From Candidatus Eremiobacteria bacterium (GTDB lineage: Bacteria > Vulcanimicrobiota > Vulcanimicrobiia > Vulcanimicrobiales > Vulcanimicrobiaceae), in NCBI GenBank assembly GCA_963758295.1, contig CAVWUU010000004.1, positions 352,001 to 416,000 of the forward strand: a DNA stretch of 64,000 nucleotides. Reading direction: 5' to 3'. Numbering within the stretch: position 1 is the first letter of the stretch; each line of letters opens with the position of its first letter. Position numbers and translations under genes: made by a program. This document shows positions 54,597-60,247 of the stretch, piece by piece. The notes below the pieces were generated by a model. It did not search any database, was not told where the DNA came from, and saw only the letters and a list, made by a program, of their open reading frames with translations.

Positions 54597-55568
54597 ATGG
54601 CAAATATTAAACTCGATATCTTCCGTTTCGACGAAGCGACCGACACGATTCCGCATCGCGATGTCGTTGAAGTCGACGTTCCCGAGACGATGACGGTGCT
54701 CGACGCCCTCGAAACCGCCAAAGCGGAAATCGACGGATCGATCAGCTTCCGCCGTTCGTGCCGTTCCGCAATCTGCGGTTCGTGCTCGATGAACATCGGC
54801 GGCGTCACCAGCCTCGCTTGTAAGACCCCGTGCAACGCGGTCATGGACGAAGACAACGTCGTCAAGGTCGACCCGATGCCGAATTTCCAGCCGATGAAAG
54901 ACCTCGTCGTCCATATGGACCCGTTTTGGGACAAATATGCGCGTCTGAAGCCCTATCTCCAGCCGAAGGACAAAGACTCGGAGCACCAGACCGAGCGCCG
55001 CGTTTCGCCCGACGACATGAAAAAACTCGTCGACGTCGCGAACTGCATCATGTGCGCAACGTGCTACGCGCTTTGCCCGGTCGTGAGCGTCGACCCGGCC
55101 TTCGCCGGGCCCGCGGCGATCGCGTATGCGTACCGCTTCATCGAAGACGTGCGCGACGGCAAGCGTGAAGAGCGCATCGGCCAGATTTCCGAAGATTATC
55201 TCTGGCTGTGCGCGCACTGCTACGCGTGCTCGTACTGCCCAAAACACGTCAATCCGAACGATCGTATCGTCGATGTGAAACGTGCCGCGGTGAAGGATCG
55301 CGTTATGATGGACGAACGCGGACCGCGTCACGCGCTCGTCGTAGCAAAGACGATCAAGCAGACCGGTATGCTTGCGGAAACCGAAGTCATTCTGGGGACC
55401 GTGGGACGCTTCAACATCAAGGGCATGCTGAAAGTCACATTCCTCGGCGCGGCGCTCGGCGCACGCATGGGCCTTAAAGGCAAACAGCCGCCCATCTTCG
55501 TTAAGCCGATTCCGAAAGTGGACGAAGTCCGCACAATTTTTGAAGCCCTGGAGGTCCCGGTCAGCTAA
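54597..55568 (+). CDS. sdhB: SDH/FRD iron-sulfur subunit
   Basis: SCRSAICGSC, CIMCATCYALCP, CAHCYACSYCP. Confidence 0.93.
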   Translation: MANIKLDIFRFDEATDTIPHRDVVEVDVPETMTVLDALETAKAEIDGSISFRRSCRSAICGSCSMNIGGVTSLACKTPCNAVMDEDNVVKVDPMPNFQPMKDLVVHMDPFWDKYARLKPYLQPKDKDSEHQTERRVSPDDMKKLVDVANCIMCATCYALCPVVSVDPAFAGPAAIAYAYRFIEDVRDGKREERIGQISEDYLWLCAHCYACSYCPKHVNPNDRIVDVKRAAVKDRVMMDERGPRHALVVAKTIKQTGMLAETEVILGTVGRFNIKGMLKVTFLGAALGARMGLKGKQPPIFVKPIPKVDEVRTIFEALEVPVS

Positions 55569-56518
55569 TGTCTGCCACTCTTCTTCCCGAAGACCGCGCC
55601 GTCGATTCGCACAAGGCATCGAAGTCGCGTGAAACCAAGCGGTACGGGTTTTTCCCGGGCTGCGTCGCCAAAGAGTCTTGCAAAGAACTTTTCAACTCGA
55701 CGATGCTTCTTGCCGACAAACTGGGCATCGAACTGATCGAGCTGACCGCGGCATCGTGCTGCGGCGCATCGGTTGTCAACGACGTGAACCGCGACGTCGC
55801 CCGCGTGCTCAACGCGCGCACGTACGCTCAAGCCGAGGCCCTCGGTTTGGACGACGTCATCACGATCTGCTCCACGTGCACCGGCCACATGCGCGCGGCC
55901 AACAAAGAACTGCTCGAGAGCGAAGAGCGCATGGACCATGCCAACGCCATCCTCGGCAAGTTCGGCGCGAAGTACAACGGCGGCGTCATGGTGCGCCACC
56001 TGTTGTGGATGCTTATCGACGACATCGGGCTCGACAATCTGCGTAAGATGGTCGTGCGTCCGCTCAACGGCCTTAAAGTTGCGCCGTTCTACGGCTGCCA
56101 TATCATCCGTCCCGAAAACGTCAACGGCTGGGAATCAGCCCGCAATCCGCATTCGCTTGAAGACGTCATCGAAGCACTCGGCGGTGAAGCCGTCGACTAC
56201 GCCGGCAAGACGCGTTGCTGCGGCTTTCACATCCAGCTCGAAAAAGACAACACCGCGGCAAACATGGTCGGTCAGAACATGCGCATGGCGAAGGACCACG
56301 GCGCGGAAGCCGTGATCACCCCGTGCCCGCTGTGCCATCTTGCGCTGGACGGCTATCAACAAGATTCTGCGGCGCGTTGGGGCCGCACGGATCTGCCGAC
56401 GTTCCACCTTCCGCAGCTCGTCGCGTTCGCGCTCGGCGTTGCCCCGGAGAAACTTGGCTTGAACAAGCACCTGATCGATCCGCGCACCATCATGGTGGAA
56501 CGCGAGCTCATTAGCTAA
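55568..56518 (+). CDS. CCG-domain (HdrB-like) SDH anchor subunit
   Basis: FPGC, CCG, CSTC, YGC, CCG, CPLC. Confidence 0.9.
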   Translation: MSATLLPEDRAVDSHKASKSRETKRYGFFPGCVAKESCKELFNSTMLLADKLGIELIELTAASCCGASVVNDVNRDVARVLNARTYAQAEALGLDDVITICSTCTGHMRAANKELLESEERMDHANAILGKFGAKYNGGVMVRHLLWMLIDDIGLDNLRKMVVRPLNGLKVAPFYGCHIIRPENVNGWESARNPHSLEDVIEALGGEAVDYAGKTRCCGFHIQLEKDNTAANMVGQNMRMAKDHGAEAVITPCPLCHLALDGYQQDSAARWGRTDLPTFHLPQLVAFALGVAPEKLGLNKHLIDPRTIMVERELIS

Positions 56519-56549: not shown

Positions 56550-56614
56550 AAGCGCCGTAAAGCGGCGCTTCTTCTGTTTCAGGCGCTCTTGAAAAAGCCG
56601 CCCGGAAGGGCGGC
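56550..56614. terminator. Pair of convergent terminators
   Basis: AAGCGCCG/CGGCGCTT plus T-rich tail (+); GCCGCCC/GGGCGGC plus TTTTT (-). Confidence 0.7.
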
Positions 56615-56621
56615 GATTGGT

Positions 56622-56840
56622 TCAGACTACTTGATACGGGACCACGACTTCGATCCGGTCCACGTTTTGGGCGGGTATTTCTATCTGGTCGCCGTCGAAG
56701 CACACCAGCGGCATCGAATGACTGATGCGCTCAAGCATGTTTTCGCGCACGAATTCCGCCATTTCCCGTTGATTGTAGCGCTCGCATACGCTCTTACCGT
56801 CACGTAAACGAACCCAAAGCTCTACTGCAGCGTTGTCCAT
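56622..56840 (-). CDS. Small hypothetical protein (72 aa)
   Basis: GGAGGA RBS before ATG 56840; own terminator downstream. Confidence 0.65.
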   Translation of the reverse strand: MDNAAVELWVRLRDGKSVCERYNQREMAEFVRENMLERISHSMPLVCFDGDQIEIPAQNVDRIEVVVPYQVV

Positions 56841-57030
56841 GTCGTCCTCCGAGATGGAGATGGTACCCACAAAATGGAAAGCCGCTCTCGGCTTCCAGCC
56901 GGAGAGCGGCCTTTTCTCGTCTGCGATCGTAGGTTTTCGCCGATTCGTGAACGCCGCCGGGGCGGAGATTCACGGGCGGCCCGAACCGAGGCACGATGCC
57001 GGACAAACGCCGGGGCTTTTTCTTTGCCAT
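56800..57030 (-). CDS. Small basic protein, candidate ArfA/BrfA-like ribosome rescue factor
   Basis: GGGAGGT RBS, extended -10, MAKKKPRR..GGVHESAKTYDRRREK, internal terminator. Confidence 0.6.
   Translation of the reverse strand: MAKKKPRRLSGIVPRFGPPVNLRPGGVHESAKTYDRRREKAALRLEAESGFPFCGYHLHLGGRHGQRCSRALGSFT
56870..56914 (-). terminator. Intragenic intrinsic terminator-like hairpin
   Basis: GCCGCTCTC-C-GGCT-GGA-AGCC-GAGAGCGGC followed by TTTCCATTTT. Confidence 0.65.
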
Positions 57031-57047
57031 AGTAGACCTCCCACGGG

Positions 57048-57056
57048 ATAGTAACA
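57048..57056 (-). promoter_or_regulatory. Extended -10 element TGTTACTAT
   Basis: TGnTAnnnT 17 nt upstream of ATG 57030. Confidence 0.5.
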
Positions 57057-57082
57057 CAGAGGTCGAACCACCCCGTTGCAAT

Positions 57083-58800
57083 ATGACGACCGCTGCCGTG
57101 CCTGCCGCGACCATCGATGGCCATCTGGAAGAGTTGCGCGCCGGCGCCGGCCGCTGGATCGCCATCCGACCCGCCCAAAAAGCCGCTTTGCTTACAAGCG
57201 TTCGCCAAAGCGTGGCAGCGAGGCCGAGCGCTGGGCGGAGGCCGGCTCGCGCGCAAAGGGAATCTTGCGGGCACGCCCCTTGAGGGCGAGGAATGGATAT
57301 CCGGGCCTTGGGCGGTGCTTTACGCGCTCAACCGCTATATCGACACGCTGCAGCAAATCGATCGAACCGGCGCACCGGGTTTCCCGCAACGCGTCTGCGC
57401 GAACGGCCCGGCGGACAACTCGTCGCCGACGTCTTCCCGTCTCGCTCTACGAAAGGTGCTGTTCAACGGCATTCGTGCCGAGGTGTGGATGGAGCCCGAC
57501 GTAAGGCGCGCAAGTTTGCGGAAACGCTCGGTATTTGGTACTGCAGCGCTCATCGCGACGCCAAGAGTCGCGTTGGTGCTCGGTGCAGGGAATATCTCTT
57601 CGATCGCCCCGCTGGACGTCTTCTACAAACTCGTTGCCGACGGCACGTTTGCATTCTGAAAATCAATCCGGTGAACGAGTATCTCGGGCCCGATTTTCGA
57701 GGCGGCCTTGAAACCGCTCGTCGACGGCGGATACTTGCGTTTCGCGTACGGAGGCGCGGAAACCGGCAAGTATCTAACCAATCATCCCAACATCGACGAG
57801 ATTCACATCACCGGAAGCGACAAGACGTTCGACGCGATCGTGTTCGGTGAGGGAGCCGAAGGCGCGCAACGGAAGCTTCGCGACGAAGCGATGCTTGAGC
57901 AAGCCCATTTCGAGCGAGCTTGGAAACGTCAGCCCGACGATCGTGGTTCCCGGGCCGTGGAATGATGACGATTTTGCGTTTCAAGCCCAAAACATCGTCA
58001 CCCAAAAGATGCACAACGGCGGGTTCAATTGCATCGCTTCACAGGTGTCGATCGTCCCTCCGATTGGCCCGGCAGCCGCCGATTGCTCGACGCAATTGCG
58101 CGCGTCATGGAACGCTCGCGGATCGGCCCGCCTACTATCCTGGAGCGGAGCACGGCAAGAACGCCTCACCATAAAGGATGCGGCCTTCAACGCTATGGCC
58201 GGAGTGGCGATGGCTTTGTTGCGCGAACCGTTCTGCACACCGCCCCGGATGAAACCGCGCACATCGCGTTTCGCAACGAAGCTTTCAGCAGCGTCCTCGC
58301 GGTGAAACGCTTGCCGGCGATACCGCCGCCTATCTGAAGCGGGCAGTGGATTTCGCAAATGCCGCTCTGTGGGGCACGCTTGGCGCAAACTCATCGTGCA
58401 TCCGGAAACAATGCGCGATTTCCCGGAAGACGTAGATAACGCGATTGCGAGTTTGCGCTACGGTTGCATCGGCGTGAATGCATGGACCGGAGTGGGATAT
58501 TTCATTGCTGAAACGCCGTGGGGCGCGTATCCAGGCCACGCGCAAAACGACATCCAAAGCGGAACCGGCGTAGTCCATAACAGCCACCTATTCTCCAGAT
58601 CGGAAAAGAGCGTCGTCTATGCGCCGTTCGCGCCGTTTCCACGAAGCTTCGCCGGATACGGCAACACGTTGCTTCCGAAGCCACCGTGGTTCGTAACGAA
58701 TAAAATGGCGGCGCACATCGGGCGCGCGCTTTGTGATTTTGAGGTGCGAAAAAACCCAATTTCCATGTCGCGCGTCGCTTTGTTAGCCCTGCTAGCCTAG
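57083..58800 (+). pseudogene. Aldehyde dehydrogenase with many frameshifts
   Basis: LGAGN, IHITGS, SELGNVSP, FNCIA, LRYG.IGVN, PWGA spread over all three frames. Confidence 0.8.
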
Positions 58801-58861
58801 ACGCTGCCGCGCGGCGGCCCGCTTGCATTATCCCTTAAAAACGGGGCACAATAGCCCTGTT

Positions 58862-60247
58862 ATGACGGTGAGTGCTATTACGCGTGACAGCGTAGAGCCT
58901 GAAGATGTTGCGATCCTCTCGTCGTTCATCCTGACGGCAACCTTCTGGCTGCTGCTCGCAACGGCAGTCGGACTGCTTCTGAGTTTCAAGTTCCCATATC
59001 CCGATTGGGCGGCGAATCCGTTGCTGTCGTTCGGACGCTTGCGTGCTATTCATACAAACGGAACATTTTACGGATGGGCTTCGATCGCGCTTTCCGGCGC
59101 CGCCATTTACGTCGCTGCGCGCACTTCCGGCATCGCGATCGCCGGCAAGCGCTTCGCGTGGCTCAGTTTGATTCTCTATAACGTGGCGGCCATCTGCGGA
59201 ACGATAACGCTGGACCTTGGCATGAACTACGGCGATCAAGAGTATCGCGAATGGATCTGGTGGGTGAAGCTCATCTTCCTCGCGGCCGTGTTTTTCAGTG
59301 GTTTGACGGTCGTACGCACGGTCGATGCAACGGGTCGAAAGCGAGATCTACATTTCCAACTGGTATACGATCGGCGGTTTCGTTTTCACGATTATCCTTA
59401 GCATCGTAGCCTTCATTCCGACGTACCAAAACGGCTTAGGGCAAGTCGCCGTTCAGGCGTATTTCATGCACAACGCCGTCGGAATGTGGTTCACGTTTCT
59501 CGCCCTCGGCGTTACCTATTACGTCTTACCGAAGCTCTTGAACCGGCCGATCTATTCATACGCACTTGGCGTGCTCGGTTTTTGGACGAACCTCGTCTTT
59601 TATCCGGTCATCGGCGCGCATCATTACGAGTACACGCCGCTGCCATGGTGGTTCCAGACCCTAGCCATCGTCTTTAGCGTCGGCATGCTCGTCCCGGTTT
59701 GGGCGGGCACCGCGAACTTTGCGCTGACGATGCGCGGGCATGGCGAGGCGATCCGGCGATCGTACGCATTGCCGTTCATCGTTGTCGGCGTGGCCTATTA
59801 TTTCTTGGGTTCGACGCAAGGAACGATCGAAGCGTTTCGGAGTCTTCAGGCGATCTGGCATTTGACGAATTATACGGTCGGGCATTCGCACGCCACGATG
59901 TATGGATTCATAACGTTTCTCGCGTGGGGCGGAATTTATGCGCTCTTGCCGCGCGCGACCGGAAAACAGCCGAATCGCATCGCGACCGGCTGCATTTCTG
60001 GTTTGCGACTATCGGCGTGACGTTTTACGTGCTTTCGCTTTCCGTCGCGGGCACGGTGCAAGGACTCACCTGGGCGGCGGGTAATCCGTTTATCGCATCG
60101 GTCGATGCCGCAGCGCCCTACTGGGCGGGACGCGCCGTGGCCGGCTCGTTGATGTTCCTTGCGCATTTGCTCTTTGCATACAACGTGTTATTTAATGACA
60201 CTCGGCACGTCGCGCGTGAGTTCGAAATGGGAGACGCCCGCGCGTAA
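58862..60247 (+). pseudogene. ccoN: cbb3-type oxidase subunit I-like, two frameshifts
   Basis: FGRLRAIHTN, EYRE, HNAVG, GAHH, GHSH; frame switches near 59325 and 59985. Confidence 0.8.

Follow-up and report, generated by a model that had tools for sequence, protein, structure and literature searches.

The closest described systems to the gene considered here are those of ArfA (Escherichia coli YhdL, PF03889) and BrfA (Bacillus subtilis YqkK). Both give non-stop mRNAs that trans-translation represses (PMC6881298, PMC8012679). The brfA frame has an intrinsic terminator inside it and the active form of the protein corresponds to 62 of its 71 codons, without the last 9; BrfA is SsrA-tagged and degraded unless trans-translation fails, its compatibility across species is reported to be low, and synonymous mutations that break the brfA hairpin have been used as a control (PMC6881298). 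The arfA stem-loop leads to premature termination or to cleavage by RNase III (PMC8012679), and ArfA is confined to the beta- and gamma-proteobacteria (PMC6881298). In both proteins the C-terminal tail is basic and occupies the mRNA channel, a Lys-His motif is present, and a short strand makes the pairing with RF2 (PMC6881298); further small release-factor-recruiting factors may exist that would be hard to find by similarity (PMC8012679, PMC6881298). Here we describe a small basic gene in a 64,000-nucleotide (nt) stretch of a Candidatus Eremiobacteria genome (assembly GCA_963758295.1, contig CAVWUU010000004.1, positions 352,001 to 416,000; this whole stretch is hereafter the window), which very probably has a non-stop architecture of the same kind, its message presumably ending at a hairpin that lies inside the reading frame. 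The elements that carry this argument are as follows.

ATG 57030 to TGA 56802..56800, minus strand: the small basic gene, 76 codons, read from the sequence
56878..57030, minus strand: conserved coding part, M1 to F51, from alignments A1 and A3 and from diversity by codon position
56878..56913, minus strand: GC hairpin within the frame, 5' arm 56913..56902 and 3' arm 56889..56878
56871..56880, minus strand: U-rich, terminator-like tail TTTCCATTTT, from sequence, fold and consensus scan
56800..56877, minus strand: unconstrained tail of 25 codons plus TGA, overlapping the start of the next gene

The hairpin consists of 12 base pairs (bp) and an inner 4-bp helix beyond a 1-nt bulge; its 5' arm, AAGGCCGCTCTC, encodes K-A-A-L and its 3' arm, GAGAGCGGCTTT, encodes E-S-G-F, and in most genera it begins ~33 nt past a near-invariant His codon and encodes K-A-A-L ... 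E-(S/D/G)-G-F. A 91-nt segment folds at -36.4 kcal/mol (z = -3.4), with none of 200 shuffles folding as well, and a consensus scan places an overlapping terminator-like site at 56896..56877, the scan reporting 6 sites in 1.2 kb as compared to 1.6 expected. Covariation was assessed in a MAFFT alignment (A2) of 58 distinct homologous sequences, for a 12-pair helix, with five measures and 500 shuffles. Standard pairs fill 94.8% of the cells, changes on both sides occur in 10 of the 12 pairs, and there are 58 double-change cells as compared to 14.9 in the shuffles, none of which equals the observed value on even one measure; when the 3' partner is slid by 1-3 columns as a control, pairing drops to 33-57%. 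Arm pairs that vary jointly include GCCGCTCTC/GAGAGCGGC, GCCGCCCTC/GAGGGCGG, GCCGTCCTC/GAGGACGGC, GCCATCGTCC/GGACGATGGC, GGCCGCCTT/AAGGCGGCC and ATCGCCCTGCAG/CTGCAGGGCGAT, together with ACGCCTCGC/GCGAGGCGT in g30, a genus of large genomes. With these changes the residues that the 3' arm encodes shift as well (ESGF, EDGF, AAF, QGDF and REAF are all found), so the protein follows the RNA, and the alignment shows selection on the hairpin at the RNA level.

The stop codon tells the complementary part of the story. It lies 75 nt past the stem in this window, and in the 58 genome sequences every in-frame stop is found beyond the stem, at a minimum of +3 nt, a median of 30 and a maximum of 924, with 10 of the 58 more than 100 nt away. 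This set was extended by 70 distinct open reading frames (ORFs) from a metagenome pattern scan, and a mechanical stem finder run on 157 distinct sequences reported a strong stem at the fixed place in 105, approximately 6 of which are short stems in sequences of the hairpin-less type described below (L070, L142, L144, L159, L203 and L209). Left out before counting were L005/L037 (an unpublished genome), L098 (a degenerate copy), the duplicates L027, L030, L032, L035, L047 and L052, the rows L099-L101 and L056, whose core motif was unmatched by the pattern, and L151 and others with less than 110 nt after the His codon. None of the 105 hairpin-bearing homologues, from genomes and metagenomes, stops in frame before the 3' arm is complete, and arm and stop are separated by 0-12 nt in 16, 13-30 nt in 38, 31-100 nt in 35 and more than 100 nt in 16. 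Tails among the homologues range from 0 to more than 300 codons; at L024, L025, L039, L044 (358 codons), L048 and L050 the frames, of 104-358 codons, run antisense through the convergent gene, and in two metagenome contigs, L166 and L197, the frame of the small gene continues in frame into the homologue of orf72, its neighbour here. Close relatives, such as L001 and L002, are in different frames immediately past the hairpin while their DNA stays alike, and the closest relative differs by a 1-nt run-length change at that point. Judged by these comparisons the position of the stop is unconstrained, and, since no stop precedes the end of the stem, transcripts ending at the hairpin would do so without a stop codon.

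The coding part ahead of the hairpin behaves as protein. Diversity at codon positions 1/2/3 is 0.27/0.24/0.58 (24 ungapped codons, 89 homologues), and because it is concentrated at third positions the gene is evidently translated; comparison of the sequences confirms the small ORF as a real protein-coding gene. By direct count in the sequence there are 13 K/R among residues 1-45 as compared to 3 D/E. The conserved part passes from a basic N-terminus to a G-P...N-L-R-P-x-G-x-H core, a basic stretch and finally K-A-A-L...E-S-G-F; in alignments A1 and A3 the core residues G17, P18 and G26 are invariant and P14, N21, R23 and H28 near-invariant. An AlphaFold2 model, of low confidence (mean predicted local distance difference test score 66.8), is largely coil with one helix at residues 36-48, and the small protein is, according to this model, mostly unstructured.

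In a translated search of 40 relatives' genomes the strong matches span query residues 1 to ~48-57 and the tail is never matched, the match ending at residue 48-57 in 15 of 16 strong hits. Among 401 sampled genomes of the phylum, a profile of 16 homologous sequences (A1), used for both the genome survey and the Protein Data Bank (PDB) search, detects the gene in 131: 128 of the 296 genomes of the host's taxonomic family (f1) carry it, with 3 weak matches in the 104 other genomes. These survey counts are lower bounds, 15 first-look candidates having been scored per genome. A word-indexed search of 5.8 billion protein clusters returned 4 called proteins, none of them named, and the gene appears to be mostly uncalled in annotation. 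In an exhaustive profile search over 1.84 billion representatives 130 clusters passed E<=0.001 and 58 of these also passed E<=1e-10, all being stand-alone proteins of 34-133 amino acids (aa) with the domain at or near the N-terminus. Pfam and NCBIfam gave no match for the 76-codon ORF, for its 121-aa upstream extension or for orf72; Pfam run on the 16 and on the 130 relatives gave sub-threshold chance matches, none over cut-off; PF23876 had no match in the host genome and reached 17 bits in one relative against a cut-off of 27; and profile A1 had no hits at E<=10 against all PDB chains. The nearest clusters in the ESM Atlas are hypothetical, one with DUF7230 in 18% of its members, and that lead was dropped. 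Full-text literature searches, in which supplements were not covered, found no description of the small basic family, including in the available portions of PMC6881298, PMC8012679, PMC11633108 and PMC6514570. On sequence grounds the family is unannotated and of narrow lineage, being found almost only in one bacterial family.

A preliminary description of this locus, prepared from the letters of the window, had reported a 76-codon minus-strand ORF with an extended -10, a strong ribosome-binding site (RBS), a basic N-terminus and an in-frame GC hairpin with a U tail, and was accurate in each respect. It also anticipated a conserved N-terminal part of ~45 aa, a conserved intragenic hairpin and a variable tail, all of which the comparison bears out: the first ~50 aa are kept across the family genomes and the 130 clusters, the hairpin has its double-sided changes, and the tail is variable and independent of frame, overlapping the start of orf72 at ATG 56840 in this copy. 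It had further allowed that homologues might stop before the hairpin, making this copy an indel artefact, or that the ORF might be neither conserved nor translated; no such stop is seen in the 105, and the third-position diversity speaks for translation.

Signals for expression lie immediately upstream.

57048..57056, minus strand: extended -10-like element TGTTACTAT, read from the sequence
57037..57042, minus strand: Shine-Dalgarno (SD) site GGGAGG, 6 nt before the ATG
57075..57079, minus strand: GCAAC, upstream half of a GCAAC-N15-19-(C/T)GT(T/A) motif, from homologue upstream regions

Of 80 distinct homologous upstream regions 31 contain the pattern TGnTAnnnT, where shuffles give 2.5, and it mostly stands 16-20 nt away from the ATG; an SD-like site is present in 58 of the 80 as compared to 20.8 expected. 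Because both are enriched, we conclude that the small gene is its own short transcription unit. A two-hexamer promoter scan found no promoter on the strand of the small gene, the extended -10 element not being reported by it. The motif GCAAC/GGAAC-N15-19-(C/T)GT(T/A) is present in 13 of the 80 upstream regions as compared to 0.4 expected and always ends 20-24 nt before the ATG. Loci with a motif of this type are L016, L073, L083-L085, L089, L093, L094, L109 and L110; in the window its second half is 57053-57056, and the motif overlaps or replaces the extended -10. It resembles promoters of extracytoplasmic function (ECF) sigma factors, of the general stress type, to which its link is putative.

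Based on these features we propose the following course of events. A very short independent unit, made up of a promoter, a leader of ~12-16 nt and a strong SD site, would express a basic protein of ~51-55 aa. Its RNA would end at the hairpin, via intrinsic termination or via 3' trimming to the stem, and would hold no stop codon. Ribosomes would then translate as far as the 3' end, and tmRNA (transfer-messenger RNA) with SmpB would mark the product for degradation by tagging it. Only with trans-translation saturated would the protein build up, which is the feedback logic of ArfA and BrfA, and it would act as a back-up factor for ribosomes stalled on non-stop mRNA, its basic, unstructured body probably acting on the ribosome. 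We infer the RNA 3' end at the hairpin, the SsrA tagging, the rescue activity and the recruitment of a release factor from the architecture of the gene and from analogy. It is also conceivable that polyadenylation of a 3' end within the U run completes an in-frame UAA. Gating by trans-translation is the step to which we incline, with some reserve. Since the feedback logic would be the same as that of ArfA and BrfA, back-up rescue is the most likely role to attach to it; as an argument by analogy, a rescue-factor function is nevertheless doubtful when taken by itself, and gating together with a rescue-type role is plausible without quite reaching an even chance. Only tentatively do we suggest that the locus represents a third independent invention of a non-stop-mRNA feedback switch, after ArfA and BrfA, in an unrelated bacterial lineage with tmRNA, here controlling a new and sequence-unrelated rescue factor.

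The genomic background suits such a proposal. The host genome, which is 82% complete, has a match to the Rfam tmRNA model over cut-off (119.7 bits; L115, G000:C3:45733-46087) and a gene for SmpB, which is found in 289 of the 296 genomes of the family. At L115 ARAGORN calls no tmRNA, which may reflect assembly indels. The only genes with an RF-1 domain (PF00472) in the host genome are those for RF1 and RF2. ArfB (NF006718/PF00472) was found neither in the host genome at its present completeness nor in any of the 296 family genomes, and in the sampled phylum it is over cut-off in 3 genomes of family f18; a genome-wide search of the host for ArfA (PF03889) gave nothing over cut-off and nothing at the locus of the small gene. 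The SmpB and ArfB tallies include a few genomes flagged as unpublished, on which no conclusion rests. The small gene would accordingly offer a concrete, synthesisable candidate of ~51 aa in a lineage without a known back-up system, with hairpin-less sister forms as built-in controls, and its regulatory architecture, in which a conserved coding region leads into a covarying hairpin with an unconstrained stop, can serve as a handle for searches.

To judge from sequence, the small family operates in the manner of ArfA and BrfA at the level of gene architecture. The hallmark of both, a conserved in-frame stem-loop upstream of the stop, is present here, with covariation and with the stop past the stem in 105 of 105. 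The likeness to BrfA extends to a small basic protein, a frame of ~72-76 codons, a hairpin and U run upstream of the stop and a narrow lineage, and, as read here from gene architecture alone, to a transcript without a stop and a truncated product, the truncated form being the active one in BrfA. As to an intrinsic terminator of the BrfA type, the tail TTTCCATTTT at this locus qualifies, and across the homologues the picture is mixed, with at least 5 U in 8 nt in 41 of the 105 on a crude count and fewer in the others. With arfA the gene shares the stem-loop before the stop, a length near ~72 codons, a small basic product and a tail beyond the stem that is dispensable; the E. coli arfA stem is ~22 bp and cut by RNase III, whereas the 12+4 bp and U run seen here are nearer to the BrfA type. 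The differences are considerable. No sequence similarity to BrfA was detected (the PDB profile search gave 0 hits at E<=10; a cryo-EM structure of BrfA on the ribosome is described in PMC6881298, the presence of its chain in the set searched not having been verified), and, in contrast to BrfA, some genera of the small family have lost the hairpin. As regards the Lys-His feature, the basic stretches here are N-terminal and central, near-invariant His28 is followed rather than preceded by basic residues, and the C-terminal end is acidic. ArfT of Francisella tularensis, compared by its description in the portions of the literature available, is likewise a very small, charged, lineage-restricted candidate recruiter of RF1/RF2; it is not reported there to arise from a non-stop mRNA and is built on a repeated charged helix. 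ArfB differs in that the 76-aa sequence has no GGQ and no RF-1 domain. Because architecture is shared and sequence is not, we do not file the small family under ArfA or BrfA.

Several observations weigh against the proposed gating and rescue role. In-frame stops are nearer to the stem than stops in the other frames (medians 30 as compared to 59-65 nt; Mann-Whitney p=0.006, which is indicative only, the sequences being related), so read-through probably occurs and the in-frame stop looks like a selected back-up stop; moreover, in 12 of the 58 sequences the stop is no more than 12 nt past the stem, and a terminated transcript might still include it. A crude count of U in 8 nt over the 105 hairpin-bearing homologues gives at least 5 in 41, 4 in 25 and 3 or fewer in 39, and with U tracts this poor intrinsic termination is doubtful in about one third of the copies. 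The K-A-A-L...A-A-F-D variants, which are followed by CTTCGACGTT, are an example of a weak U run, and in such copies the 3' end would need processing or exonuclease trimming to the stem. The product ends acidic, unlike the basic C-terminal tails of BrfA and ArfA, and homology to ArfA is lacking, with no PF03889 hit at E<=10 and an hhalign probability of 0.05% for A3 against E. coli ArfA. The neighbourhoods of the homologous loci show no synteny with translation genes, and across the family there is no complementary distribution with SmpB (289/296) or ArfB (0/296). Finally, g43 (...ELRDEL..VDLNVD), g35 (...QEI.AAEAEEQE), g32 (...LSALGSWAFDEDE) and several other genera are without the hairpin, and L013, L015 and L077, which are close to hairpin forms, have a stop at the position of the 3' arm; with some lineages lacking the hairpin, non-stop gating is not essential to the family.

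In these hairpin-less genera the protein carries a conserved C-terminal extension of acidic character, a normal stop follows, and tail length is constant inside each genus; an acidic or aromatic residue immediately precedes the stop in many of the 130 clusters. Taken with the hairpin-bearing forms, the alignments suggest that the functional protein ends about where the hairpin ends and that a hairpin without a stop and a stop without a hairpin are alternative states of one gene. The overall interpretation in the preliminary description, of a lineage-specific release-factor-recruiting factor under feedback control, therefore stands only in part: its comparative predictions held, and hairpin-less genera with normal stops had not been foreseen. 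If a third invention of the switch is entertained, the sister genera with a stop and an acidic tail might be its natural switch-off variants, which we mention as a speculation. Hairpin-less loci L053-L071, L111 and L112, along with metagenome sequences, carry genus-specific acidic tails, one type ending G-x-W-A-F/Y-D-E-D, and such tails could be a partner-binding motif.

The chief alternative is that the product is an ordinary small, basic protein with the ribosome, RNA or DNA as its binding partner, and that a terminator merely overlaps the 3' end of its coding region. Enough transcripts would then carry a nearby stop, or the non-stop fraction would be wasted, and the function would be unrelated to rescue. 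We regard this as rather unlikely, and as an explanation to be reckoned with all the same. In its favour are the hairpin-less members, which occur in several genera as well as in the set of 130 clusters and combine ordinary stops with conserved C-termini that are acidic or aromatic, the closeness of in-frame as compared to out-of-frame stops, and the absence of similarity to known rescue factors. At compact loci, moreover, the hairpin, which has a flanking A-run and U-run, lies just past the convergent gene for a CCG-domain subunit and could also terminate that gene, as a shared bidirectional terminator. Such a protein sits poorly, however, with the 16 of 105 copies that have no stop within 100 nt, some of which would yield products of 100-358 aa antisense through another gene, with the want of even one stop before the stem, and with selection that keeps the hairpin within conserved codons across many genera.

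A tmRNA-gated stress factor of another kind, for instance a modulator of ribosomes, RNases or proteolysis rather than a recruiter of release factors, would draw on the same architectural evidence as the rescue factor we favour, and we think it improbable. The acidic end and the acidic-tailed relatives, which are unlike ArfA and BrfA, would suit it, as would the excess of the GCAAC-type motif, with its putative link to ECF-sigma stress promoters; on the other side, the only two characterised genes with such an architecture, in the literature available to us, are those of rescue factors, and neither ArfA nor ArfB was found in the lineage. If the protein is not a rescue factor, and gating holds, it would be the first different function under trans-translation gating.

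It is very hard to credit that the small ORF is a cis-acting leader whose hairpin serves as an attenuator of orf72: the hairpin does lie 37 nt before the orf72 ATG here and the two genes adjoin in many genera, but orf72 is upstream of the small gene at L040, L044, L046 and L051, which speaks against such a role, and is not seen in the available DNA of many other loci, and the hairpin persists; in addition, the ~50 aa are conserved as protein, also in hairpin-less genera. That the gene normally stops at the hairpin, and owes its long tail here to an indel in the assembly, can practically be set aside. The neighbouring aldehyde-dehydrogenase and ccoN genes are indeed split over frames, and the closest relative has its 1-nt run-length difference, but in each of the 105 hairpin-bearing homologues, which come from many assemblies, the stop lies past the stem, at scattered distances, and none stops before it.

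The surroundings of the small gene in the window include the following.

56622..56840, minus strand: orf72, an acidic ORF of 72 aa with ATG 56840 and its own RBS, GGAGGA, at 56850..56845; of no known family
56597..56614, minus strand: terminator-like hairpin followed by TTTTTC after orf72, from the consensus scan

In many genera orf72 adjoins the small gene, downstream in some, as here, and upstream in the loci given above, and in many genera the small gene has a divergent aldehyde-dehydrogenase gene on one side and, on the other, a succinate-dehydrogenase-like cluster that is convergent with it. Two facing terminator-like hairpins occupy 56550-56614 in the window, between orf72 and the convergent gene for the CCG-domain subunit (55568-56518, plus strand). 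On the other side, the aldehyde-dehydrogenase-like gene (57117-58800, plus strand) and that for a cbb3-type oxidase subunit I-like protein (ccoN; 58823-60247, plus strand) are each split over 2-3 overlapping frames, which points either to pseudogenes or to indel errors, the assembly being in 6 contigs and 82% complete. With frameshifted neighbours in this assembly the exact tail length of the small gene here may be off, and our conclusion is independent of it. One genome has, ~2.5 kb from its intact copy, a further and degenerate copy of the gene at L098 (G303:C2:47243-48780), with the core motif damaged and the hairpin-coding end intact.

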